Shown here in pieces: positions 14,597-44,018 of a DNA stretch of 64,000 bases. The number at the start of each line of letters is the position of its first letter. Position 1 is the stretch's first letter. Origin of the DNA: Naegleria gruberi (taxonomy: Eukaryota); the NCBI GenBank assembly GCA_000004985.1, contig GG738867.1; one strand, given 5' to 3'. The position numbers and the translations under genes are program-made. Below the pieces are notes generated by a model. It ran no database searches. It saw nothing but the letters and a program-made list of their open reading frames with translations, and was not told the origin of the DNA.

Positions 14597-14677
14597 CGCG
14601 GTCTACAGGATTCGAACCTGTGCGGGTCGCCCCAATTGATTTCTAGTCAATCACCTTAACCACTCGGTCAAGACCGC
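14597..14677 (-). tRNA. tRNA-Ser (anticodon AGA)
   Basis: Reverse complement GCGGTCTTGACCGAGTGGTTAAGGTGATTGACTAGAAATCAATTGGGGCGACCCGCACAGGTTCGAATCCTGTAGACCGCG folds as a type-II tRNA. Acceptor GCGGTCT/AGACCGC, D-arm GCCGAGTGGTTAAGGC, anticodon stem ATTGA/TCAAT with loop CTAGAAA (AGA), long variable arm, T-loop GGTTCGAATCC. Near-identical to eukaryotic tRNA-Ser-AGA. Confidence 0.85.
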
Positions 14678-15881: not shown

Positions 15882-17501
15882 ATGGATGGAGGTAACCATT
15901 CTCGTAACAATAATGAGAGTATTATTCGAAACTCTCATTCGAATAACATGCTTGATGTTCAGTCCTCTTTACAAGATTCAAAAACAATACATGAATTATC
16001 ATCAGCAACAACACCACAACAACAATTATTTGGAAAAGGTTCCTCTTCTTCTACCAGTTTAGTCTTACCATTGACTGGACTAAACCTTTCCAATAACAAT
16101 ACTACTAGTAATTCTATTAATATTAATAATAATAATACCAATGGTCTGTCTTCTAATAGTAGCAGACAATATGTATCAGATACAACAAGTGTACAAACTA
16201 ATAATCGATCAGATTCGTCCAATAGGAATCGAATAGGATTAGTGGATTACACAATGTCAGATTCTAAAGATGACGATACTCATCTATTGATGCTACAACA
16301 TTCCACTAATAATAATACTAATCCTCAACAAGTTTCGTCTATCCTTTCGAATACAACATCAACAGCTTATCAGCAACAAGTCTTTCACTCTACTGCACCA
16401 ACACAACTGCATGGCAACAACACAGGACACAACAAGATTTTATCATCGAATAACGATTCTTCCATAATATTACCCAACGTTTCGTCCCAACTTTCGAATA
16501 GCAACATGTTTGTTTCTTGCATAAACAAATCAGCAAATTCTGTCCATTTTAATAACAACCAGTCAATGTCTAACATGCAATCTGATACAATGGAGGCATC
16601 AGAAGGAATTTTCATGCCAAACTCGCAAAACTCTAGGAATAGTACAACAACAGGATTGGTTTCGAATAACTCCACGATGATGCATGTAGCATTCTCAACT
16701 CAAAAAAACATGCAAAATGGTCAACCAACATGCTCCTCATCATCGTCATTGGAAAATCAACATCAACCACAACATGCATTACAACAAACGAATGTTGGTA
16801 TAAACTCGACTAATCCAAACTATCAATTCCTAATTAATCAAATGCAACAAACACCATCATCATCATCATCATCCATGAGAATGCTTCCAAATGCAACATT
16901 GAACATGCAATTGAATGCGAACATTTCATCATCTCTACAAATGGTAAACAATCAGACGACGACGACAACAAACTTTTCAAATTCTTCTTCCAACATTCAA
17001 AACATTCCAACGACATTTAATTCAATGATTGTGGAATATCAGACAATGCCACTTTCTGTCAGTAATCAAACAAATCAATTGACATCCATTGGAATGCATG
17101 ATGAAACCATGTTGAAATTGGATTTGGAAGATTTTGTGAATACGTTACATAGTGAGGAATATAGAGTCTATATGGATATGAATAATCTCGTTTCGAATAG
17201 TTACCATTCGAATAGTATTGTAGTGAATCATCCTTCACAACAACATCCTTTAACGTCATCTTCTAATTTACCTCAACAACAAATATCATCACTACATGTA
17301 AATCCACCTCCTAATTTTGTCCCTTCTTCCAATTTATTGAATAATCCCAACCTTTCGAATATTGCAAACAACAATTTGCATATTATCTCTTCTCAACAAC
17401 AGCAATTGCAACCAATCAACATTAACAACATGCAAAGAGTTGTTTCTCTAAATCTAGGTTCCTCCTCTTTAAATCCTACTTCCCATTTCCCATTCGAATA
17501 A
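15882..17501 (+). CDS. Asn/Ser/Thr/Gln-rich low-complexity protein (possible nuclear/transcription-associated; prion-like composition)
   Basis: 539-aa ATG ORF dominated by N, S, T and Q runs (NNTTSNSININNNNTNG; QQQQ). No globular domain recognised. The downstream ORF at 17575..18012 may belong to the same gene. Confidence 0.4.
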   Translation: MDGGNHSRNNNESIIRNSHSNNMLDVQSSLQDSKTIHELSSATTPQQQLFGKGSSSSTSLVLPLTGLNLSNNNTTSNSININNNNTNGLSSNSSRQYVSDTTSVQTNNRSDSSNRNRIGLVDYTMSDSKDDDTHLLMLQHSTNNNTNPQQVSSILSNTTSTAYQQQVFHSTAPTQLHGNNTGHNKILSSNNDSSIILPNVSSQLSNSNMFVSCINKSANSVHFNNNQSMSNMQSDTMEASEGIFMPNSQNSRNSTTTGLVSNNSTMMHVAFSTQKNMQNGQPTCSSSSSLENQHQPQHALQQTNVGINSTNPNYQFLINQMQQTPSSSSSSMRMLPNATLNMQLNANISSSLQMVNNQTTTTTNFSNSSSNIQNIPTTFNSMIVEYQTMPLSVSNQTNQLTSIGMHDETMLKLDLEDFVNTLHSEEYRVYMDMNNLVSNSYHSNSIVVNHPSQQHPLTSSSNLPQQQISSLHVNPPPNFVPSSNLLNNPNLSNIANNNLHIISSQQQQLQPININNMQRVVSLNLGSSSLNPTSHFPFE

Positions 17502-17574: not shown

Positions 17575-18012
17575 ATGAGTAGTAGTAATCAACCAACTCT
17601 CACACCACAACTTGTTTCCAATATTTCCACCACAACTCAAAAGATTATTCCACCACCACCACCAACAAGTGTAAATATTGGAAACAATGCAAATGTTGAT
17701 ACACCCAGAGAATATGTCATTCACGAAAATGAATATGACAGAAAAAAGACTCCAAAATCCAAAAAGAGGCAATCAATTGACTATTGCAATCAAAAGAAGA
17801 TGGAATTTAAGATGGAAATTTCAACAAAGCATCCTCAACCGAATCCTGTGCAAGTAGTTGTTACCTCGTCATCTTCAGTAAGCACACCACAAAGTAATAC
17901 AACACCAACAACAAATTCTTCAAGTATAATGATGGGTCAATATGTCAACAACAACAATAATTCATTTTACAATGAACCACAAATGGATGAGAATCCTGAA
18001 GAAAATAAATGA
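17575..18012 (+). CDS. Low-complexity Pro/Thr/Asn-rich ORF with a basic patch (KKTPKSKKRQ); may be a 3' exon of the preceding gene or an independent small gene
   Basis: 145-aa ATG ORF 74 nt after the stop of the 15882..17501 ORF, in a different frame. No splice signals could be assigned confidently. Confidence 0.3.
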   Translation: MSSSNQPTLTPQLVSNISTTTQKIIPPPPPTSVNIGNNANVDTPREYVIHENEYDRKKTPKSKKRQSIDYCNQKKMEFKMEISTKHPQPNPVQVVVTSSSSVSTPQSNTTPTTNSSSIMMGQYVNNNNNSFYNEPQMDENPEENK

Positions 18013-18269
18013 TTTTAAAAGGTGGTGTGTGAAATTCATTATTTGGACCATTGAATTATTGAACCAATTTGTAAAGTGGAGAAATAATGGAAAGTCAATT
18101 GCATTTATGTCAGTAAATAGAGGCAATGGTGCAACATTGCAAATCTGACTAATGATCCTTCCGGATGAAAATTTAAAGTATCTTCCAAATAATAATTCAA
18201 CAATTGTAATCAAGTAAAAAACACTGGACGAATTTGTGAATTTATATTAAGCCAATAGATAAAATGAAG

Positions 18270-18340
18270 TGCATTAGCCGGGAGTCGAACCCGGGTCACC
18301 AGCTTGGAAGGCTGGTATGATACCGTTACACTACTAATGC
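18270..18340 (-). tRNA. tRNA-Gly (anticodon TCC)
   Basis: Reverse complement GCATTAGTAGTGTAACGGTATCATACCAGCCTTCCAAGCTGGTGACCCGGGTTCGACTCCCGGCTAATGCA. Acceptor GCATTAG/CTAATGC, anticodon stem CCAGC/GCTGG with loop CTTCCAA (TCC), T-arm CCCGGGTTCGACTCCCGG. Closely matches eukaryotic tRNA-Gly-TCC. Confidence 0.85.
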
Positions 18341-18581
18341 TTCTTGCTAACAATTTTCAAAATATGGATTTTAAAAACTGCACTTCTTACGAATTTGGAA
18401 TGTTTGTTGAGCATTCTAATTTCTGTCAAAAGTTCGGTTGTAGGCTTACTCTTTGTGATTATGTTTGTTTCATTGTATACGAAATAACTTGGATACTACA
18501 AATAGGCTAAATATGACACAACCTTATCCTACCATTTGTGGAACAGAAATCATCGATTTAACGAACAGATTGGCCTAGCAA

Positions 18582-19568
18582 ATGTCATCTCCATTCAAAA
18601 AAATGAAACAATTAACATTTAAACTATTGATCTGTGCACTCTTTATTCTCTATTGTAGTTGCTCCATGGCTATGGCTGGTCGTGGTAGTGGAGGAAGCTC
18701 AGGTAGAAGTTCTGGAAGTAGTGGTGGTTCTAGAAGTGCTGCCTCAAGAACTACCAGATCAGCTAGTTCTGCTCCAGGGAGAAAGTCAACTACCAAGTCA
18801 AGATCTGGAACTGCAGCTAAAAAGTCCACCAAGCCATCTAAAAAAACAAGAACAACAAAACTGGTCAAAGGAGATGCACTCACTACAGGAAAATCAACAG
18901 TGGTTGTGAAGAAGGGTGACACTGTGAGTGAAATTGCATATAAACTTGCCAAGGAGCGTAATATTCCTTTCAAGGAAATGTATAAGGCAGTATATGAAGC
19001 CAACAGTAAATTACTTGGAGATAGAACTCAATTGTTTAACAAGTATGGTGCCAAGATGAGATTGCATGGTAAATTGGGTGATTTCAAGTTTAGAGATGCT
19101 ATCAAACCAGGTGATGTTTTGAATTTACCAACTTTGGGATTGAAACCAGAAAATCCAAATGGTGACAAACCTGGCAAGGGAGATCAACCAAATAATGGTG
19201 ATAAGCCTAGCAATGATAAGCCAAGCAACAACGTTGATCAGCCAAGTAATGCTGATAAACCAGACAATGGAAACAAACCAGATATTGCTCAGCCTGACAA
19301 TGGCAAGCCAGAAATCATTCCTGAAAAACCAAACAATGGTAACACTCCAGATAGTGGAAATATTCCACCTCACAGAGGTATTCCACCAATCATTGATGTT
19401 ACTCCAAAGATACCAATCTCATATCCAAAGAATCCAACTCCAATCAAACCACTTCCTATCAATAACAATGGTAAGAAACTGGTTCTCAGACATGCTAGAC
19501 TCAGAGGAAGAGGGGTTTTCATTAAGGTCAATGTTAACATTAATGGTCAACCAAATAAACTAGATTAG
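18582..19568 (+). CDS. Secreted LysM-domain protein with Gly/Ser-rich and Pro/Asn-rich (KP/QP) repeat regions; the start is probably the ATG at 18603
   Basis: N-terminal hydrophobic signal-peptide-like segment (MKQLTFKLLICALFILYCSCSMAMA). GS-rich linker, then a LysM-like core (VVVKKGDTVSEIAYKLA ... IKPGDVLNLP) with an insert. Then DKP/QPxN repeats. No TM helix. Confidence 0.6.
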   Translation: MSSPFKKMKQLTFKLLICALFILYCSCSMAMAGRGSGGSSGRSSGSSGGSRSAASRTTRSASSAPGRKSTTKSRSGTAAKKSTKPSKKTRTTKLVKGDALTTGKSTVVVKKGDTVSEIAYKLAKERNIPFKEMYKAVYEANSKLLGDRTQLFNKYGAKMRLHGKLGDFKFRDAIKPGDVLNLPTLGLKPENPNGDKPGKGDQPNNGDKPSNDKPSNNVDQPSNADKPDNGNKPDIAQPDNGKPEIIPEKPNNGNTPDSGNIPPHRGIPPIIDVTPKIPISYPKNPTPIKPLPINNNGKKLVLRHARLRGRGVFIKVNVNINGQPNKLD

Positions 19569-19752
19569 TTTTATTGAAATCTAACACTTATATGTCGTAT
19601 TGTAAATATTTTGAAGTAGGAGCAGAGTTGAAAACATAATATTGTTCCTGCTGCCATACTTGAGCTGAAATTCAATAGAGTTAGATGTTGTTGACTAAGC
19701 ACCGATTCTAGGAAGAATATCAGCATTACTGTATCTGTGACAATTTGAAAGG

Positions 19753-21330
19753 TCAATAAAATCTTCTGAACTTGGAAGGAGGAGCAATCATCCCTCCTCC
19801 ACCGAAGAAATGTGAATGTTGGAGGAATGTGACAGGAATATTCCCATCTTCTCTAATTCTTTTGAATTGTATCGTTTGTTCAGTGTTATGTAGCCCTCTA
19901 ACAGAAACGGTTTGATTTGTAACACTTTGAATATATTGAGCTTTCTTTTCTTCCAATTTTTTCTTATATGCATCCTTTTCATTTGTTGGCAGCTCTTTCC
20001 ACATTTTGCTAACCATTGACACAATCTCTTTTCTGGATTTATCTGGATTTTCTATAAGCATTTTTGGCTTGACAATATTGGTATAATAACTGTAAGCTGT
20101 TTTTTCTGGTTGCTCTATATTTCTGATTTTCTGCCCTTGACTAATTTCGAACATTCGATTCATTATTATGAACATGTCTTCTAGCATTAATGAAATGTCT
20201 TGAGTAATTTCTTTTTCATTGAAACAAGTATTAATATAATGAGTTGTTGAGTCAGTACTGACTGTGGCAGTTGTCAAACCATTTAACAGAGTTTCATTAG
20301 GAGTGGCATTATTATAAAATAATACATTTCCATCATCTTTGAAAATGATGACATTTTCGTAGATTTCTCCAAATATATAATTCTGTGAATCTCTAAACAT
20401 GTTGTATAATTTTGCCTTTCTCAAATTACAACTAACTTCATTATGTTGATAATAGGGAATATAATTTAAACATCTATGAATATTTGAAATAAGTGTTTCC
20501 TTACAACCACTGGTTTGAATTGCCCTTAAACCTGATTCACATAATTCTGATTCCAATTGTTGTAAATCACCTCCAGGGAAGTATTCCTTGTAAGAATTCA
20601 TTAAATCTTCCATTTTAGTCTTGACTTTAAAATTATATCCTTCATAGACAACTAATGCACCACGTAAAATACTCAATAATTGGAAAAAGTTATCAGTAAA
20701 GTTTAGATTAGGATATATCGACAAGTAAGCTCTCCTAATGGCTCTCATGGCAATTTGATTCAAAGTTGCTTGATCCTTAGCATTACTTTTCAAATGCTTC
20801 ATGAAACTTGTACAAGGACTGTCCTCTCCCGTCATTATATAATATTCATCATCAGAAATATCATCATCATCATCTCGGATTCTAAATACAACATGGTTAT
20901 CAGAAAATGTCTTCAAATGAGCTTCTTCATCTTCTTCATCTGAATCGAAATCATCATAATCATTCGTGAATGTATTCAAGCCTTCATCCATAGCAAAATC
21001 CATGTATGGATTAAAGTTGTATCTATTCCTTTTCTTCCTCTTCTCGGGCCGAGTTACTGCAGCTACAATACCTGCATCAGGTGCAAAAGGTAATACAGTA
21101 TCACTACCACCACACAAACAATTTACATAATACAATTTACAAAAACGTTCGGAGAAGAGTAATTCCTTCCACAACTTGTTGACCATCCACAATGGAGCAA
21201 ATTTATAATTCTTTTTTTCTCCTTTACATTCTACAGTATTAAAAAAGACATATTTTGGATGTATAAAGGAAAGTACATTGAGTATGAGTGGTTCTTGTTC
21301 AAACCATTCATAGGAGAGTGAAGAAGACAT
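19753..21330 (-). CDS. HMG-box DNA-binding protein (HMG box at C-terminus)
   Basis: 525-aa ATG ORF. The C-terminal region QPEKTAYSYYTNIVKPKMLIENPDKSRKEIVSMVSKMWKELPTNEKDAYKKKLEEKKAQY has the spacing and conserved W/K/Y positions of an HMG box. An acidic D/E stretch lies mid-protein. Confidence 0.6.
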   Translation of the reverse strand: MSSSLSYEWFEQEPLILNVLSFIHPKYVFFNTVECKGEKKNYKFAPLWMVNKLWKELLFSERFCKLYYVNCLCGGSDTVLPFAPDAGIVAAVTRPEKRKKRNRYNFNPYMDFAMDEGLNTFTNDYDDFDSDEEDEEAHLKTFSDNHVVFRIRDDDDDISDDEYYIMTGEDSPCTSFMKHLKSNAKDQATLNQIAMRAIRRAYLSIYPNLNFTDNFFQLLSILRGALVVYEGYNFKVKTKMEDLMNSYKEYFPGGDLQQLESELCESGLRAIQTSGCKETLISNIHRCLNYIPYYQHNEVSCNLRKAKLYNMFRDSQNYIFGEIYENVIIFKDDGNVLFYNNATPNETLLNGLTTATVSTDSTTHYINTCFNEKEITQDISLMLEDMFIIMNRMFEISQGQKIRNIEQPEKTAYSYYTNIVKPKMLIENPDKSRKEIVSMVSKMWKELPTNEKDAYKKKLEEKKAQYIQSVTNQTVSVRGLHNTEQTIQFKRIREDGNIPVTFLQHSHFFGGGGMIAPPSKFRRFY

Positions 21331-22361: not shown

Positions 22362-24833
22362 ATGGAACTTAAAGATGGTTACTTTCCTTCTTCCAATGGT
22401 TCCGATTTTACATCATTAGCAAAGTTGCAACGTTTTTCACCCATTTCTGTCTCATTCAATGTATTAATTTGCTTTGATTCAAAATATGAGACCGAAGTGA
22501 GTGTAAAGAAACATCAACTATCCGATGAAACAAATTTACTGGTAAGTATTAATCCACACCAAAATAATTTATTATTGATTGACTAATTTATTATTATATT
22601 ATTGAAAATAGGTAGAAACTCTTTCATCCAATCACCATTTAAAAAATTGTGAATATTTACTGCCAATCTATGAGTGCATTCCAGATGATGTTGATTCATA
22701 TTTTACTATTTCTCCCTATTGTAAAGAAGGTGATCTAGAAGAATGGATTCGTAGGAATGAATTTTCTCTGCAAAAACCCATTCCTCCCGAAACTATTCTT
22801 CTCATCCTCTATCAGGTTGGCATTGGTATTGATACGCTCCACCACTCAAATATTATTCACAGAGATTTGAAATTGAAAAACATTTTCGTTAGGGAGTATG
22901 ATCCAAACACAGGATATATCAAAATAATGATTGGAGACTTTGGTGATGCCAAACAAATGGAAAAGAGTTACTATGAATCGTCTGGTACCAAAACTTTTAA
23001 TGATTCACCTCCAGAAATAATAGACCAATGGAAGCAAAACAAGAAGGATGTTAAGTGGACAAAGAAAGCCGACTTATGGGGCATTGGTTGTGTGTTGTTT
23101 AGGTTATTGACATTTGATTTGGTATGTTGAGAATAGTTGTTTCATTAACACAGAAAAGACTTCTCCACTTCATGATATTATTTTCGATGATGCTAATGAC
23201 AATTGGATTGTAAATCTTTGTAACAGATTTGTATGTAGTTTTAATAATCAATTATTTCAAAATAATCATTGACAAGTAGCAACTCGATGACTTGTTTGTG
23301 AAATTACTATACTACACCTTACAACCAATCTACTCACAGAGAGGAGGATCTGCTAGTTTTTTGGAAAGGGTATTATTGGTTTTAACCCAAAAAGGTTGTC
23401 ATATACGTGATGAAAAAAGTGGGCTGATTAATGGTATTAGCAAAGCATTTAACGAAAATACAACTGAATTGATAAAGCAACAAACTCTCGATATTAGCAC
23501 TTTCATGGGAATGAGAGAGGACTATTTGAGAAAATTGGCAATATCAATCATAGACAATGATTTGGAAATATTAGAAGAAGTTCCTCATGCATTGGAAAAA
23601 GGAGATTCTTTTTACCAACAGAAACTAATTATTATGCTTACTACTAATGATTTGAAAGATGAGAAAGGGATGGAAGATATTTTTGAAAAATCAATTCAAT
23701 TATTTCCAAAATGTATTTATCTATCCAAATTATCATGTTCCCTTTTCTTCATGCTTGAAAAATATGAAAAATCATTATTATATATTGAGAAAGTAACATG
23801 TAATTCTGTTTTTAAACTAAATTATGAAGACTGGATTACCTGCTATGACATGAAATCAAATATTTATGCTATTCAGGAAAAATGGGATGAAGCATTATCG
23901 ATTGCAGAATTTATTCTTTTGGAATTGGCAGTTAGGAAAAGTAATTGTATTCCAAAGCACGTTATTGCTTTAAATAGAGCTGAATTGTATTTTAATAAGA
24001 AAGATTATGACCAATGTATTGAATCATGTACATTTGTAATTGACACATTTGAGAACCTTCATTCTGTAGAGGATGAGAAAAATGCCCACCTTGTAGCATA
24101 TACTTTGGCTGCTAAAGCATATGGAGAAAAAGGAGATCAGTATAATTGCTTTAGATTCATCCAGGTAGCTCATTCTACTAATGAAAGAGACTGCACAATT
24201 CTAATTATCAGAGCACAGTTATATATCAAGTTCAATCAGATTGAGTCTGCACTCGATAGTATTTTGAAAGCAATATCTATACAACCTCAAACAAGGGAAT
24301 ACTACGAGCTTGCTTTAACTGTGTTTAAAATGTGCAAAAATGTAAACATGACCACTTTATGTTCTGAACTGATTACCAAATTGGATAATAGAAAAGAGAT
24401 TACCAACTCAGACCTGAGTTTATTACTTAAATTAGAAACAAAATCTACTATTGAAACCATCAAACAAGATTCCTCTCATAATACTGTTTCACCTCTAAAT
24501 GCTATTGTAAAAACCAAAATCACTTTGAGCACTCTACGTGGAACCACTGTTAAGGTGGAATGCACTGACATTGAAGGTATCATCAAAGAATGCAGACATA
24601 AATTATTGAACGATAAGTTGGAAATAATTGTAAACATGAAAGAAAAGACTAGAATTGACTATATCGAAGATTTGGACCCCTCAATTAATTACACAATTTT
24701 AACAGTTGAAGAATTCAAGGATTTAGACGCGAAACAACCTCCTTCCAACACAAATTCAATCCTATTATCCTCCATGGCAGCTCTTTCTTTCCTTGCTGCC
24801 GCAACCTCCTATTTATTCATTGTAAGGAAATAA
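22362..24833 (+). CDS. Protein kinase with C-terminal TPR/Sel1-like repeat domain and C-terminal TM anchor (cluster copy A); exons 22362..22541, 22612..23121, 23340..24833
   Basis: GTAAGT donor at 22542 and GTATGT donor at 23122, with TAG/CAG acceptors in frame. The middle exon carries kinase subdomains IV-IX (YLLPIYEC...YCKEGDLEEWI...IIHRDLKLKNIF...IGDFGDAK...DLWGIGCVLFRLL). Exon 1 lacks a canonical GxGxxG loop. The C-terminal 500 aa is helical-repeat rich and ends with a hydrophobic helix (MAALSFLAAATSYLFIV). Confidence 0.6.
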
Positions 24834-24839
24834 AAAAAA

Positions 24840-27075
24840 ATGTCATTGCTCCTCTCGTCATATTCTCGCTTCCAAAATGTTGAGATGATTGGTGCTGGGT
24901 CTGGTGGGACTGTTTTCCGTGCTTTTGATCAAGAAATTGGAAAACAAGTGGCCATCAAAGTGACTAAAAGTATTCAAGAAATGAAAATTGTAAGTAAATT
25001 CTTGTTACATTGTAATCAATGGACAATAATTTAATATATTATATTAATAGTATAATTATATTAAAACAAACAATATTCAAAATAATTACCTGGTTGAAAT
25101 TTATGATCATTTACAGAGTGGTGACGATGACTCTATTATTGTGATGGAGTATTTTCGAGAGGGAAATTTAGAAAATTGGTTGAAACAAAGAAAGAAACCT
25201 CTCAGTTGGCTCTTAATTTATAGTATCCTATTGCAATTAACATTCGGAATACACTACTTGCATTCCAATAAGATTTTTCATAGAGATTTAAAGTTGAGTA
25301 ATATTTTGGTGGTGGAGGAGGTTTGTGAACACATGGTGAGAGTAAAGATTGCAGATTTGGGATTATCGAAAATAGTGGATCATGATACAATCAAGCACTC
25401 CAAGGTTGGAACTCACTATTATCTTCCACCAGAAGTCAGACAACAAACCACTGAAGAAATTATACCAGAGAAAATTGATATTTGGAGTTTTGGAATTCTG
25501 GTTTTCAGATTATTGTCCAGAGATTTTACGTATGATGTGGCCAGCAAGTTGGTCAATAGTAAGGAGAAGGATTTTTGTGAGGATGTACTGATGAAGATGA
25601 TTCAGAATAATGAAAATGTTGATTGTGGGGTTGTGACTAATTTTGTAACATTTCTCACACCAACACTCAAATTGAAACCAAGCGAAAGGTATAATTCACT
25701 GGATTTATTCGATTTATGTTTCAATATTCCAAATAATGAGTCGTATGTCGATCAAGATACTATTGACCTACTTGTTGATTGTAGAGTTGATCCTTTGATA
25801 ATTGGAATTTGTTACTTTTCTCTCAAACAGACAGAAAAATCAATTCACTATCTCGAAAAAGTATTAGAGAACAAAACAGAAAATAACAATAGTGCAGAGA
25901 AGGGCTTTGCATGTGCAATCATGGCCTTTATAACACTGTTCAATGGTAAAAACAGAACCATTGTTAATTCAGAGAAAGAATACAAAGTCAATCCTGACTT
26001 TTTGAGATATATTGAATATGTGGAGAAATATTCAATTACTTTCAAGCTGTATCATTTGTTAAAATCAAAGCAATATTTTATGAGCCAGCATTATGAAAAA
26101 TCTATAGAACATGCAGACCAATGTATAGAACATATTGGCTCTGCCTCTAGTTTGAAAGCTTGTTGCTTGCATGGTTTAGGTTATTATGATAAAGCACTTG
26201 AGGTTATGAAGAAAATCAACCCAAAAACTGAAATGGATTACAGAAACATGTCATATATTTATTTGGTTGAATATCAAAATTATGAGGAGGCTTTAAAGTG
26301 TGCAAATAGTGCACTAGAACTCAATCCAGGAGTTCCTGATTTTTATTTACTGAAAGTATGCTGCCTCGCAAGTGCTGCTCCAAGTGAGGCTCTTACTTGT
26401 TTGAAGAATGCTCGAAAATTAATTGGAAAAGTAGGTGTATATTACTATCACAAGGGGAGAATCTATTTGAATATGGGGAGATTGGAAATGGCTCTTTCTA
26501 AATTAAATAAGGCCCAAGAATTAGGTGAGGAGAGTATGAATTTGATTGCAGTTTTGGAAATGGCATTGGGTAGATTACCTGAAGCTCTTATTTCAATCAA
26601 TAGATATTTAGAAAAGTATCCAAATAATATTACAGCCCATAACAACAAGTTCAAGATATTAATCATGCAAAATTTGACAGAGGAGGCGAAAATTGAGCTA
26701 GAATTAATTGAACATCTCAAACGTCTCAACATCAAAACTGAAAAAACCATCAAACAACAATTGTATTTTGAAAATGACAAACCTCCCATCTCAAACATCT
26801 CAAACACGAATATTAAGGAGTGTTATTTTGTTTCCAAAAACCATACCTTCAAAAGAAAGATTAAATTTAACTCTGTGGAAGATCTTTTGAAGCAATGCAG
26901 AAAAGAATTTCAAGACGAAACAATCACCACTTTTATTGACGAAAATTCACAAGTATGTGATTTAAAATTTGGAACTTTTATACATGGAAAAACCTATACT
27001 GTTACTGGTGATTTGTATATGGAACAAACTTCATATATGAGCTCGCTAATGAATTATCTTTTCCAAAAACGGTAA
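24840..27075 (+). CDS. Protein kinase with C-terminal TPR/Sel1-like repeats (cluster copy B, apparently intact); exons 24840..24989 and 25117..27075
   Basis: Exon 1 has a Gly-loop and VAIK (IGAGSGGTVFRA..KQVAIKV). GTAAGT donor at 24990 and CAG acceptor at 25116. Exon 2 has HRDLKLSNIL, DLG (IADLGLSK), a YYLPPEV activation segment and DIWSFGILVFRLL. About 400 aa of TPR-like helical repeats follow. Confidence 0.8.
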
Positions 27076-28973
27076 ACAACAAAGGCCAAAATTGAAATAG
27101 TGCCTACTATTACATATGGGCTTATTGAACTCGATTCAGCTACTACACTGTATGTTTCATCTTCAATAATTTCATCAAATGCTTGGCATTTGGTTGCTCC
27201 TAAATGAATGGAAATAATTTTACGTTTGAATAACTTGCTGGCTTTCTCCATTAAATTTTCCATAGAATCTGAACGAATACAATGAATATAAGGGTGTCCC
27301 TCTAATCTCAGCTTTACATCCTTTTCAATAAACTTTCCTACAACGGTTTCTCTGTTGGCATTCTTATCCATTTGTTGAATATTATTGGAAGCCTCCACTA
27401 TATTACCCATTTCAAGTAGAATATTACTTCTTATTTCATTACTAAATTTGCAAGTGGGAATTTTCTGAAGATGATTATTGATTGATGAAAGAGCTTGGTC
27501 ATATCTTTTCAATTTTTGATAACATTGAGCTAGTAGTAAATCAATTTTGTTTTGAGGTATCTTAACCATCAAGAATTCCTCCAAAGCTTGCTCATAACTA
27601 CCAATAGCTCTATAAGTTTTTCCTTTCAAATAGTGGCATCTTGATTTGTCAAATTCTCTTTCAGATTCCTTCAGTACAGTATCGTAAATATCCAAAGCTT
27701 CTCCAAATCTTTTCAAGTGAGCGAGTGTCTTCCCCTTCCCCAATAAAATATTAAAATAATTTTTGTGAATTCTTAAATTGTAATTATCCAATGCAAAATT
27801 AAAATCTTCAAGTGCATTTGCAAATTCTCGAGTCTTATACCTACACTGTCCTCTATTGATATATACAGTATCTTCATCCAATCCATCACGAATAATAGAA
27901 TTGATATCTAATATTGCTTCAGAATATTGCTTACTCATTGCCTTGTAGGAACTCAATAGTATTCTTGGTCTCCTTTCACAAGGCTTTAATTGTGTAACTC
28001 TCTTGAGATATGCTAATACCTTTGCTGTGAATCCAGAATTGACAACTTGAATTTGACCACTAAGGAAATATACCAAATACCCTCCATTTTTCAAGTGTAT
28101 GTCTATTAATCGAATAATATCAGGTTCAAAACTTGATGCCAATTGTTCTGCGTCTATTTCTGGATTTTCAGCTGCATTGAAAACTTTGAAAAGCATTGAA
28201 TATAAAATCATTAAATCAAATATATCACCCTCTCCCAAAAACATTCTCAATTCTCTATTATTGATTACATTGTAAAATATCAAATCTTCTCTACCAACAG
28301 GAATTGAAACGTTCTCTCCACTCTCTGGGTGCAAGAATGCAATAACATTTAATTGTCTACAAATATCCTCAAAAAGTATAGAACTATTCACTCTCAAAGA
28401 TGGTTCAGGTTGAAGAGTTCCTTGTAAAATAATAATGAAAAAATTATCTTGTAGAGGTGTCAGCTTTTCTCTAATGATTTTCAACCATAATCTTTCATCC
28501 TCATCAATAGGAATAAAATTGGTTGACTGTATAATGAAAAGGTTATACACAAATTGATCCAACTATTGAAAACCTACCAATTTCAATAATTTCATGAGTA
28601 TTAAACCGACACACCACACGTCAACCTTCATCAATTGCATCTCTCTAGTCTCCTCATCATTCGTCATATGTAAGAGACCCTCCACTTCCTTTGGCTTGAT
28701 TTGTGAAAATTCTTCAATGGCCAACAAATGACTTTTAATATTTTCTCTCTCGTCCAAAGTGTCAAATTCTAACGAATCAATCAAAGGAATTCCTTCCTCC
28801 TTTTTAATAATTAATTTTAACAAATTCAAGTGTGCCTTTCCAACATTATGATGGTATTTATGTAAAAATAGAATTAATTTATAAATTAAATGGATGATGG
28901 TGATAGGATCATGATTGTTCTCTTTGGCAGTGTTGATAAATTCCTCCAATGTAAATCTTTTCATTTTTTTCAA
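27054..28973 (-). pseudogene. Decayed paralogue of the kinase-TPR family (cluster copy C): only C-lobe kinase remnant, in-frame TAG, TPR-like repeats retained
   Basis: Two adjacent same-frame ORFs (28973..28563 and 28562..27054) are separated by a single TAG codon. The upstream part contains only kinase subdomains V-IX with a degenerate catalytic loop (HNVGKAHLNLLKLII instead of HRDLKxxN). There is no N-lobe and no room for one, because the next gene ends at 29030. The downstream ORF is a TPR-like repeat region paralogous to copy B and has its own C-terminal hydrophobic helix. The 3' end overlaps copy B by about 22 nt (convergent). Confidence 0.5.
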
Positions 28974-29029: not shown

Positions 29030-31204
29030 TTATTTCTCTGATTCAAGGAAGGAATTGATGATATCAGTAAACTGAGAAGGAAATTCTCGTCTCTTTGCAA
29101 GTAATTCCAATGTTTCAGGTATTATTTTCTCATGCAATAAATCTAGACTTGGTCCATTAGAAGATTTCACTGTAAAGCACAATTTGGCATTGTATCCTTT
29201 TTCATTAATACATTGTCCAAACAATTGTCGTAATTGGTAGAAATACGTATAATCACAATCCATAAAAGTCATTGAAACTCTGTCAATAATAAATATGGTT
29301 TGCAATCTCTTTTCAGTTATTTCAATAATTTTGCTTTCTTTTCTAGTACCATCGATAGTGATTGAAACTTTGATTTTCTTTCCTGGTCTTTGTAACAATT
29401 CAATAAGTGACTTATTAGACATTTCTTCATAATCTTTGATAAATATTGAGCAAGCACCGAACCAATTCTTAATGGCCTCTTGTTGTATTTCAGGATGTGA
29501 TGTAAGGATATCCATATTAATCCATCTTATAGCCTTTGGTGCATATTTTACAATCTCTAAAGCATAATCCTTATTGCTAGATATAAACTTTGACACTTTT
29601 TGGAGACTTGTAAAAGGATCTTTTTTAAGAATTGCGATAATAATGTCCATTGAGTGTATGTACTCTTTAGGAATTGTGCTAATATTGTCTCCTCCTTTGA
29701 TGGAAGCAAGAACCATTTCTTTATCAATCTCAATACTACTATCAATTTCTGAAATGCTGAAACCTCTCCTCAAACAGTCTAAAATCAGCTCTCTATCGAT
29801 TCCAATGATATCCTTATATTCCTTTTTAAAAAGATACTTGAGAATGGATGGATTGACTCTTAGAGCCTCTTTAAGGAATTCCTTATCATGTCTCAATGAC
29901 TCATCCAATATCTTGAATAATTTTCTTTCCTGACGGCAATATTTCAACAGCCCTCTATTCTTCAAGAATTCACTGTCAACTTTGAGAGAAATATTCTTGG
30001 ATATGAATTCAGTGTCTATGGTAGTACTAACTTCTATTAACTTGCAGAATAAGTCGAAACTATTGAAAAAGCGATCATCCAAACATGCACAAATATCATC
30101 ACTTTCTACATCATGGCACAGGTACGATATGTCATAATCACGGGTTGTGCACGCCTTTACAATTTCCCAAGGCACAAATCCTATTTTTCCCTCAGCTTCT
30201 CCTTGATCCCAAGGGTAATCTGTATACTTTGAATTGGAAACCTTCGCTTTTTTTAATCCAATAATGTCAATGAGATTGCATGCTACTAAATATTCATCAT
30301 CAAATCCCAAATATCCCACCATTTGTTGTAATTGCAACACTAAAATTCCCTTATCACCTGGAACAAGGGAAACCCAATAATCACTTCTATAATTACAATT
30401 TTCAAAACTTGGATATGATAAACCTCCATAAAAAGAGCATAACAATTCCTTCTCCTTCCTTTGGAAACGGATAATATTTCCATTATTAGAAACTAGGAGA
30501 AATCTATTTGAGGATGTTGTGATTTTACACAGCTTCATATTGTCCATCTCAATAAACTCTACACAATTTGATATCTTTTCTCTGGTAATTTGAATTTCCT
30601 TTACCTCCTCATCTTGTTCATCTTTATCATCTTGGTCATTTTCTTCATCCTCTCCTTCATCTTCTTGATCATCTTCTTCATCTTCCTCTTCCTCTTCATC
30701 TTCTTCTTCTTCATCGTCATGTTCCTCTTCGTTTTGCTCTGTTTCATCATCTCCATCATTTTCATCTTTCCCTTGCTCATCTGTGACCATCATTGCATTC
30801 ACTTCCTCATCCATTTTCAATACCTTCAACAATCTTAACCAATATGCCAATGAATGATATTCATTCTCTGGATTACACTCTACAGACCAAGTCCATGTCA
30901 ATTTTCCTGAACAAATCTTGTTATTCCATAGAGTATCAACCCACTCCTTCAGCAAAAGTATGATCTTCTCACGGGAAAAGTACAAATCGTGCCAATCTTT
31001 ACACACCACAGCAAGTGATGGCAAATCCTTTGGTGAACAAAACTTGAATATATGACCCAATACAAATGGATCATATCGACAAACGAGAATATTTAGAGGT
31101 TTCTCCAATAATTGATTGGATTTTTGCTTTTTTGATGATGACAACGAGAGAGAGTTATCTTCCGAAGAGGTTCGCTTCATTTGGTGTTGGGAATTAGTAG
31201 ACAA
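29030..31204 (-). CDS. F-box-like / poly-acidic / SH3-like / DUF4116-repeat protein
   Basis: 724-aa ATG ORF. N-terminal F-box-like motif (LNILVCRYDPFVLGHIFKFCSPKDLPSLAVVCKDWHDLY). About 70-residue D/E run. SH3-like segment (...GDKGILVLQLQQ...GKIGFVPWEIVKA). C-terminal tandem approx 30-aa repeats of DUF4116 type (DKEFLKEALRVNPSILKYL / DKEMVLASIKGGDNISTIP / DYALEIVKYAPKAIRWI). Confidence 0.6.
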   Translation of the reverse strand: MSTNSQHQMKRTSSEDNSLSLSSSKKQKSNQLLEKPLNILVCRYDPFVLGHIFKFCSPKDLPSLAVVCKDWHDLYFSREKIILLLKEWVDTLWNNKICSGKLTWTWSVECNPENEYHSLAYWLRLLKVLKMDEEVNAMMVTDEQGKDENDGDDETEQNEEEHDDEEEEDEEEEEDEEDDQEDEGEDEENDQDDKDEQDEEVKEIQITREKISNCVEFIEMDNMKLCKITTSSNRFLLVSNNGNIIRFQRKEKELLCSFYGGLSYPSFENCNYRSDYWVSLVPGDKGILVLQLQQMVGYLGFDDEYLVACNLIDIIGLKKAKVSNSKYTDYPWDQGEAEGKIGFVPWEIVKACTTRDYDISYLCHDVESDDICACLDDRFFNSFDLFCKLIEVSTTIDTEFISKNISLKVDSEFLKNRGLLKYCRQERKLFKILDESLRHDKEFLKEALRVNPSILKYLFKKEYKDIIGIDRELILDCLRRGFSISEIDSSIEIDKEMVLASIKGGDNISTIPKEYIHSMDIIIAILKKDPFTSLQKVSKFISSNKDYALEIVKYAPKAIRWINMDILTSHPEIQQEAIKNWFGACSIFIKDYEEMSNKSLIELLQRPGKKIKVSITIDGTRKESKIIEITEKRLQTIFIIDRVSMTFMDCDYTYFYQLRQLFGQCINEKGYNAKLCFTVKSSNGPSLDLLHEKIIPETLELLAKRREFPSQFTDIINSFLESEK

Positions 31205-42554: not shown

Positions 42555-44018
42555 ATGTTTCAAGAAGAACACCACCAACACCAGTTCGGTAAATTGCTTA
42601 TTGGTAGCATGCTGCTATTGATGTGTTGCTGCTGTGTGATGATGGGTGAGGTTAGTGCAACACTTGAGGTTACGAGGGCTGAGAAACAAGCAGTTACATC
42701 TAAGGGAATTTTGCAAATTCAAGCAATTTCTAGACACTGTGATAGATTGCCAGTTTCAGAGTTGAATATTCCTAATGATCCGATTGATTTTGAAAAGATT
42801 TCCAAGTTGAAATTGGGTGAGTTAACTGGTTTGGGACAATATCAATGCAATCAAATGGGTAATAACCTGTACAATAGATACATCAGTGAACAATCATTGA
42901 ATAGAGTTAGAGGTATTTCAACACAATATGTATCAAGTGATTATTCATTTAGATCAACAGATTTAGATAGAACATTGATGAGCATGTGGTCTGTTTCAAT
43001 GGGTTTATTCAAGCAAGGAACTGGAAATACACCAATTGTTAATTTTATGAATGTAAATGATTTGGAAGGTAATTCAATGTTTTCACTTCCAAATGGTACT
43101 CAAGCAGTTCCTGTTCACACAGTTCCACAAGAGTCGGATTCAGTCTTGATTGGATATCAATTTTGTAACAGCGTAATGAAAAGAATGCATGCGGTGAATA
43201 CTCAATCAGCTATTGAATATTTCAATAAGAATCGTCAATTAATTAATGAATTGTTCAAGGTTACTGGATGGGATGCCTCTAAGGGTGATTTATCTTTGGC
43301 AACACTTGTTGATGTTTTAACAGTTCAAAAATCTCACAATTTACTTTCTCTCCAATGGGTTCATGAACATTGGGATGAGATTTGTGCATTGAGAGATGGA
43401 TATTTGAAATTAATTTATACCTATCCAGTATTTGGAAGAGAAGGAAGTAGTGATCTTGTTACATTGATGAATTACAATGTTGCTCAGACCAAAGTCAAGT
43501 ATTATCACTACTCGGCTCATGACACTACTCTGCAAGCACTTGCTGCCAGTTTGAAATTAACTGCTGATTATCCTTATTTGGCCAATCAACCAGGTTATGG
43601 ATCATTCATGGTTATGGAATTACATGAAATGAGTGATGGATCTAAGGCTGTCAGATTTGTTCATGCCAAGCAATTTAATGATACTTCATTCACTCCTCTC
43701 ACAATGACCTCATTGGGTTGCAAGAGTGAATATTGTCCATTAGAACAATTTTCTGAGCTAGTTAGTGAATATTCAATGGTCCCTTCTGATTCAACATGGT
43801 GTATGGAATGTAAAAATTCAAATAGAGATTTGTGTGCTAGCGAATTTATTCAAACCTACCAAGAATCCAATAAGGCATTGATGATTACCACTCCAATTCT
43901 TGCCTTTACTAATCTTTGCACCATTTTTATCATGATTGCAGTAATTGCTTGTTGCATTAGAAAGAATAGAAAACTAGCAAACCAACAACAAGATGCCATG
44001 TATCATGGAATGAAATAA
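42555..44018 (+). CDS. Histidine acid phosphatase (branch-2, lysosomal/prostatic acid phosphatase-like) with signal peptide and C-terminal TM anchor
   Basis: N-terminal hydrophobic leader; RHCDRLP (a variant of the RHGxRxP catalytic motif) and a downstream HD motif (YSAHDTTLQAL); C-terminal TM helix ILAFTNLCTIFIMIAVIACCI followed by a basic tail. Confidence 0.7.
   Translation: MFQEEHHQHQFGKLLIGSMLLLMCCCCVMMGEVSATLEVTRAEKQAVTSKGILQIQAISRHCDRLPVSELNIPNDPIDFEKISKLKLGELTGLGQYQCNQMGNNLYNRYISEQSLNRVRGISTQYVSSDYSFRSTDLDRTLMSMWSVSMGLFKQGTGNTPIVNFMNVNDLEGNSMFSLPNGTQAVPVHTVPQESDSVLIGYQFCNSVMKRMHAVNTQSAIEYFNKNRQLINELFKVTGWDASKGDLSLATLVDVLTVQKSHNLLSLQWVHEHWDEICALRDGYLKLIYTYPVFGREGSSDLVTLMNYNVAQTKVKYYHYSAHDTTLQALAASLKLTADYPYLANQPGYGSFMVMELHEMSDGSKAVRFVHAKQFNDTSFTPLTMTSLGCKSEYCPLEQFSELVSEYSMVPSDSTWCMECKNSNRDLCASEFIQTYQESNKALMITTPILAFTNLCTIFIMIAVIACCIRKNRKLANQQQDAMYHGMK

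Follow-up and report, generated by a model that had tools for sequence, protein, structure and literature searches.

The gene and its protein

The 64,000-nucleotide stretch of Naegleria gruberi DNA analysed here (contig GG738867.1 of assembly GCA_000004985.1; hereafter the window) carries at positions 18,582 to 19,568, on the plus strand, a single-exon gene for a protein in which sequence and predicted fold identify a divergent LysM module. The open reading frame (ORF) runs from an ATG to a TAG through 328 codons and requires no intron. From its second methionine (Met8, at 18,603) it is identical to the deposited 321-amino-acid (aa) model EFC44605.1 (XP_002677349.1; UniProt D2VF17), and the gene is NAEGRDRAFT_67471, annotated as "predicted protein". 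P0001, which represents the cluster of the deposited model, has no precomputed Pfam domain. The gene at one point seemed to be unannotated, with its 328-aa sequence absent from the protein collection and its flanking genes numbered consecutively; this idea was rejected after a cluster look-up showed that the deposited model begins at Met8.

The gene is real. Because it is annotated in N. gruberi and its frame is kept open in an independent metagenome contig, the ORF is more than a product of chance. The contig (L001/L002; ENA ERZ929261, run ERR1078381, project PRJEB11402) is 98.6% identical to the window over 18,546–20,282, and the entire frame is open there, leader included, with a single in-frame 3-bp indel in the tail. 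The protein copy it encodes is 97% identical and is the sole close relative detected. The ratio of nonsynonymous to synonymous change (pN/pS, by Nei-Gojobori counting) is 0.43 overall, in a comparison of two copies only and with small numbers. The LysM region (residues 93–192) has zero nonsynonymous and three synonymous changes, and the leader, basic arm and tail have a pN/pS of about 0.7. Such a pattern would be expected of a folded module whose disordered flanking arms evolve fast. As a side observation, the public metagenome ERR1078381 holds a Naegleria strain that shares ~98.6% identity with N. gruberi NEG-M in this region; a literature search did not find the PRJEB11402 project. The gene caller behind the metagenome contig placed the protein start at an internal methionine, such that the signal peptide was lost.

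A LysM module split by a basic insert

By sequence and predicted fold, residues 104–183 are a divergent LysM module. It belongs to the long-helix-2 (FimV/YgaU-like) subtype, and a basic insert of 27 residues divides it in two. The first part of the module (residues 104–144; 18,891–19,013) comprises a strand (VVV, 106–108), the GDT loop (112–114), helix 1 (115–126), helix 2 (130–147) and Asn141; it is covered by Pfam LysM positions 2–23, hhalign and a hidden Markov model (HMM), with an AlphaFold confidence (pLDDT) of 77–85. The stretch GDTVSEIAYKLA lies at residues 112–123 and IKPGDVLNLP at 174–183, with extra sequence between the two. The LysM motif residues that are kept are G112-D113-T114, I118-A119, N141, G177, L180 and L182-P183.

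What is the evidence for membership in the LysM superfamily? First, Pfam LysM (PF01476) is the top match for the full-length protein (18.1 bits, E = 0.0027, profile positions 2–23 of 43). The sequence-only reading had named scoring with this profile as a check and would have taken a sub-threshold outcome as refuting it. Read to the letter, that outcome is nearly reached: the full-length sequence falls below the gathering cut-off of 20.9 bits, but residues 104–185 alone exceed it with 23.1 bits. Second, an exhaustive HMMER search with the domain against 1.84 billion representative proteins returned its own cluster and 11 weak matches (E 3.6e-6 to 5e-4), nine of which carry Pfam LysM, five of these nine together with FimV_N; the remaining matches, to a polyubiquitin and to a calcium-binding protein, appear to be spurious. 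Several repeats per target inflate the whole-sequence E-values in this search. Third, a custom HMM built from 17 FimV-type repeats of 57 aa gave residues 108–143 a score of 32.4 bits, against at most 8.9 bits for 5000 shuffled domain sequences (3,848 of which scored at all), a test that is partly circular in that the repeats were picked from the query's own matches. Fourth, hhalign against 23 genuine LysM repeats gave a probability of 98.1% over residues 106–145. Fifth, three of the four strongest weak NCBIfam matches (YneA, the LysM/YgaU protein PRK11198 and Rpf) fall on the LysM-like stretch. Finally, AlphaFold predicts a beta-alpha-alpha-beta order with the two strands paired, both without and with an alignment. 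Structural matches include the LysM of a T. thermophilus NlpC/P60 protein and that of AtlA. A sequence search of the PDB gave no match, and Pfam and NCBIfam scans found no catalytic or other domain besides the LysM.

The position of the closing strand can be read in two registers. Under register (a) the module is contiguous and closes at YGAKMRLHG; under register (b) it closes at DAIKPGDVLNLP, after the insert. Register (a) matches the exact Asn-to-Gly spacing of FimV repeats and was the one picked by MAFFT. Constructs scored against Pfam LysM distinguish the two. The N-terminal half alone scores 19.3 bits, and neither truncation at residue 163 (register (a), 18.3 bits) nor splicing of register (a) to canonical spacing (18.6 bits) improves on this. 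In contrast, deletion of residues 145–171 (register (b)) raises the score from about 19 bits to 28.5–29.4 bits, against 23.1 bits for native residues 104–185, with the match extending over profile positions 2–43 of 43. As controls, nine other 14-mers spliced on in the same way scored 18.5–19.7 bits, and a tenth that overlaps the motif scored 22.5 bits. Thus, DAIKPGDVLNLP is worth about 10 bits of Pfam score, the nine control 14-mers are worth nothing and the motif-overlapping one is worth 3–4 bits. AlphaFold pairs strand 106–108 with residues 179–181 in both models, even when given the register-(a) alignment. Register (b) is preferred because the construct scores rise with DAIKPGDVLNLP and because AlphaFold pairs strand 179–181; an uninterrupted LysM ending at YGAKMRLHG was rejected, since it brings no Pfam gain and the later VLN strand is the one that is paired.

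The insert (LGDRTQLFNKYGAKMRLHGKLGDFKFR, net charge +5) occupies residues 145–171 (19,014–19,094) in the helix2-strand2 loop, as delimited by the in-silico deletion and a pLDDT below 50 in both models; AlphaFold confidence is low over residues 149–172. Its length of 27 aa is the best estimate. The closing strand and motif, DAIKPGDVLNLP (residues 172–183; 19,095–19,130; family pattern N.L..G..L.IP), follow directly, assigned from the Pfam constructs and the AlphaFold pairing. The module is consequently not the contiguous LysM of ~43–57 residues, as the 27-residue insert interrupts it. The proposal in the sequence-only reading of a LysM-like fold that closes at IKPGDVLNLP and carries an insert of about 25 aa agrees with both the constructs and AlphaFold.

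Leader, arms and tail

The remainder of the protein consists of a hydrophobic leader and of low-complexity sequence; AlphaFold predicts disorder for everything beyond roughly residues 104–183, apart from a leader helix at residues 4–30 (pLDDT 72–91). The leader, MSSPFKKMKQLTFKLLICALFILYCSCSMAMA|G, spans residues 1–32 (18,582–18,677) and is the protein's only hydrophobic segment, with a Kyte-Doolittle mean over 19 residues of 2.13 against at most 0.42 elsewhere. Assigned by rule-based inspection (hydropathy and the -3/-1 rule), it has a Lys-rich n-region (K6, K7, K9), the core LLICALFILYC and the c-region SCSMAMA, with small residues at -3/-1 and a predicted cleavage site at AMA|G (A30-M31-A32|G33). 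The signal-peptide-like leader described from the sequence is therefore present. The histidine acid phosphatase (His_Phos_2) encoded at 42,555–44,018 (plus strand) of the window starts with a similar Cys-rich hydrophobic leader, MFQEEHHQHQFGKLLIGSMLLLMCCCCVMMGEVSA; members of this family are normally secretory or lysosomal, and a leader of this kind may be a typical style of Naegleria signal peptide. The protein is probably secreted after signal-peptide cleavage. Its predicted mature form has a mass of about 31.5 kDa and a pI of about 10.3, with zero cysteines and zero N-glycosylation sequons. Hydropathy and inspection of the whole protein revealed no C-terminal hydrophobic, membrane or glycosylphosphatidylinositol (GPI)-like anchor, and the expectation that the protein would lack a membrane anchor holds to the extent that there is no second hydrophobic segment.

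On the N-terminal side of the module, residues 33–103 (18,678–18,890) form a cationic region rich in Ser, Gly, Thr, Arg and Lys, assigned as disordered from its composition and a pLDDT below 50. It has weak, sub-threshold composition matches to Mucin and SSP160 only. Residues 33–92 carry a net charge of +15 and have a pI of about 12, such that the earlier description of a Gly/Ser-rich linker is correct for Ser and Gly and incomplete for Thr, Arg, Lys and charge. On the other side, residues 184–297 (19,131–19,472) are an extended tail with 23 Pro, 18 Asn, 11 Asp and 11 Lys, disordered in the AlphaFold model, and include seven (D/N)(K/Q)P triplets between residues 195 and 233. The 3-bp strain indel falls here, at codons 216–218. 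The tail had been described as a (D/N)KP / QPxN repeat region. Its Pro/Asn-rich character and its triplets bear this out, but the only tandem repeat in its DNA is a 15-bp unit present twice (19,199–19,228), so the tail is better described as low-complexity sequence with some regularity than as a clean array of repeats. The protein ends in a basic, non-hydrophobic segment assigned from composition and hydropathy (residues 298–328, KKLVLRHARLRGRGVFIKVNVNINGQPNKLD, net +7; 19,473–19,565). This segment has no family match in a Pfam scan and no relatives in a word-index search, the latter being a weak negative given that the search missed a known near-identical protein.

Genomic neighbourhood

The window is AT-rich, with a GC content of about 33–36%, and includes genes of typical eukaryotic kinds, for Sec7/BIG, an exocyst-type subunit, PAN2, an HMG-box protein and kinase-TPR proteins. 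Two ORFs that flank the LysM gene exactly match N. gruberi XP_002677441.1 (13,097–14,455, minus strand) and XP_002677442.1 (19,753–21,330, minus strand). These matches identify the window as nuclear DNA of N. gruberi and rule out a parabasalid source, which its DUF4116 and BTB proteins had at first suggested. XP_002677442.1 corresponds to the convergent HMG-box gene NAEGRDRAFT_49009, whose stop is 185 bp from that of the LysM gene, an arrangement also found in the metagenome contig. Upstream, a tRNA-Gly(TCC) gene (18,269–18,340, minus strand) lies ~240 bp from the LysM-gene ATG and is conserved in the metagenome contig; a tRNA-Ser(AGA) gene (14,597–14,677, minus strand) is farther away. At 18,546, between tRNA-Gly and the ATG, the metagenome strain has a 34-bp insertion that lies 36 bp before the start codon; it also has a 7-bp indel near 18,405. 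Upstream identity is ~95%, compared with 98.6% across the genes.

Between the flanking genes there are also two plus-strand ORFs (15,882–17,501 and 17,575–18,012) of extreme Asn/Ser/Gln/Thr-rich low complexity with no Pfam match. They may be one gene; inspection of the 73-bp gap between them revealed no obvious GT...AG intron. Farther downstream, a cluster of TPR-rich ORFs (23,292–28,562 and 29,030–31,204), one of which also encodes a fused protein kinase domain, lies together with a DUF4116 protein. ORFs 23,292–24,833 and 25,141–27,075 may be exons of one kinase-TPR gene.

Comparison with known LysM and cyst-wall proteins

The closest resemblance of the module is to the LysM of bacterial FimV/HubP and YgaU/Kbp (PF01476, clan CL0187), with which it has the long-helix-2 subtype in common. 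The N. gruberi protein differs from these in its 27-aa basic insert between helix 2 and the last strand, in its eukaryotic host and secretory leader, and in the absence of FimV_N, BON and an internal transmembrane segment. With no FimV_N match and no internal hydrophobic segment, it is not a FimV/HubP-type protein; the LysM subtype alone resembles FimV repeats. Among bacterial wall proteins, AcmA- and p60-type autolysins and NlpC/P60 LysM proteins likewise combine a basic LysM with linkers rich in Ser, Thr, Asn and Pro. Unlike them, the N. gruberi protein has no catalytic domain and a single LysM, in a eukaryotic secretory context.

Fungal LysM effectors (Ecp6, Mg1LysM, Slp1) are made by fungi that colonise hosts; they contain multiple LysMs or dimerise, and disulfides stabilise them. 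The N. gruberi protein, in contrast, comes from a free-living bacterivore and has one LysM between long disordered arms, with no cysteine in its mature part. It may, by analogy, work like these effectors in binding glycans, but it is not a member of their group. A role in evading host detection, raised by the sequence-only reading, is unlikely because N. gruberi is a free-living, non-parasitic amoeba.

Protist cyst-wall lectins provide a different kind of parallel. The Entamoeba proteins Jacob and Jessie pair a small module for carbohydrate binding with a signal peptide and low-complexity spacers. The Acanthamoeba cyst-wall lectins Luke, Leo and Jonah have the same design (PMC6541295). The N. 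gruberi protein is alike in design logic, whereas the modules of these lectins are Cys-rich chitin- or cellulose-binding domains unrelated to LysM; no sequence relationship between the N. gruberi protein and the cyst-wall lectins was found.

Relatives and origin

Searches of protein collections, JGI metagenome contigs, viral contigs and paralogues within the window found no relative besides the near-identical metagenome copy. Word-index searches with sub-fragments likewise gave none, and these are weak negatives, as they also failed to return the known near-identical protein. The best bacterial LysM repeats are 26–37% identical over about 45–55 residues. An old transfer would fit the likeness to FimV-type repeats of bacteria. 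A common AT-rich amino-acid composition may lie behind the ranking of the bacterial repeats. Bacterial gene transfer was rejected as a supported origin: 26–37% identity over ~50 residues is insufficient to demonstrate either transfer or common descent.

Possible functions

What might the protein do? The explanation to which we give an even chance of being correct is that it is a secreted cationic LysM lectin of the bacterivorous amoeboflagellate N. gruberi. We infer the steps from signal-peptide cleavage and secretion to ligand and biological role as follows. A signal peptide of ~32 residues would be removed and the protein would enter the secretory pathway. Its sole folded part would be a single LysM, split by the insert in a loop beside the canonical sugar-binding groove and flanked by the cationic Ser/Thr/Gly-rich disordered arm on one side and by the Pro-rich spacer and short basic end on the other. 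LysM modules bind polymers of N-acetylglucosamine (GlcNAc) through the strand1-helix1 and helix2-strand2 loops, and from the family the module may be expected to recognise GlcNAc-containing polymers specifically. The peptidoglycan of prey bacteria would be the likeliest target, with chitin as the alternative. Because a lone LysM binds weakly, the cationic arms and the insert are proposed to contribute avidity towards the anionic envelopes of bacteria. As a lectin, the protein might then coat cell walls, either extracellularly or in the phagosome.

Several points weigh against this explanation. At the level of the fold, the full-length protein is below the Pfam gathering score (18.1 vs 20.9 bits) and matches the first half of the profile only, and per-domain phmmer scores to LysM repeats are just 12–20 bits. 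The better AlphaFold model used a LysM alignment, so the fold in that model is not independent evidence, and the insert and closing strand are of low confidence in the models. Foldseek found nothing significant in the PDB, its best hit being a LysM at E = 0.35. At the level of function, a single LysM usually binds weakly, an insert at the ligand-binding loop could alter or abolish sugar binding, and the hydrophobic stretch of ~18 residues could, judged by its sequence, be an uncleaved signal anchor. No orthologue outside the N. gruberi lineage was detected in the HMMER search of 1.84 billion proteins, in JGI metagenomes or in viral contigs, and literature searches on the gene identifiers and on Naegleria LysM proteins gave nothing usable on expression, localisation or binding.

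Three other explanations compete with this one. The protein could instead be a lectin of the cyst wall or extracellular matrix, secreted at encystment, with the LysM binding a chitin-like GlcNAc polymer of the amoeba's own wall and the arms being extensin- or mucin-like, a logic comparable to that of the Entamoeba cyst-wall lectins. The anatomy fits this equally, and wall and matrix proteins typically have Pro- and Ser/Thr-rich low-complexity arms, a high pI and no catalytic domain; near-neutral evolution of the low-complexity arms alongside a conserved LysM is in keeping with it too. We nevertheless hold this role to be unlikely, given that literature searches found no evidence of chitin in the Naegleria cyst wall and that the known protist cyst-wall lectins are Cys-rich, whereas the mature N. 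gruberi protein has no cysteines. It is similarly doubtful that the LysM is degenerate and has lost glycan binding. The protein would then be a cationic disordered one that works through its arms, as a mucin-like coat, an adhesin or an antimicrobial polycation, or the module would have been re-used for protein-protein contacts, as in the LysM of phage/pyocin baseplates and Kbp. The placement of the insert at a binding loop and the presence of baseplate "glue" proteins among several of the top structural matches point this way, but the shared LysM motif residues are retained and the module is the sole part of the protein under clear purifying selection. Least plausible, and in our estimate improbable, is a type II membrane-anchored surface lectin, a stalked LysM prey receptor tethered to the plasma or phagosomal membrane by an uncleaved hydrophobic stretch: LLICALFILYCSCSMAMA (~18 residues, Kyte-Doolittle 2.13) is within membrane-helix range and AlphaFold models a long helix at 4–30, but an A-x-A precedes Gly33 in a c-region of small residues, which makes a classic signal-peptidase site, the cytosolic side would keep only 10–14 residues and the very similar leader of the histidine acid phosphatase suggests an ordinary secretory signal.

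A bolder form of the secreted-lectin explanation brings in the origin of the module. A bacterial FimV/YgaU-type LysM would have been acquired, or solely retained, by the N. gruberi lineage and remodelled by addition of the basic insert at the binding loop and of the cationic arms; the outcome would be a secreted lectin for the recognition or agglutination of prey cell walls. We consider this scenario unlikely. If it is true, this heterolobosean amoeba would have a feeding or antibacterial factor specific to its lineage, for which no counterpart has been detected elsewhere.

Implications

In other respects this is an ordinary LysM protein, probably secreted, and a divergent, lineage-restricted member of a well-known family. 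The analysis provides the first domain assignment for the "predicted protein" D2VF17, and it illustrates that a LysM split by a loop insert can escape standard thresholds. Surface and secreted proteins of Naegleria are of some applied interest through the pathogenic relative N. fowleri, although searches of the protein and metagenome collections revealed no orthologue. If the protein does bind peptidoglycan, it would be a candidate for the recognition and handling of bacterial prey by a free-living amoeba, a process with few known molecular players.
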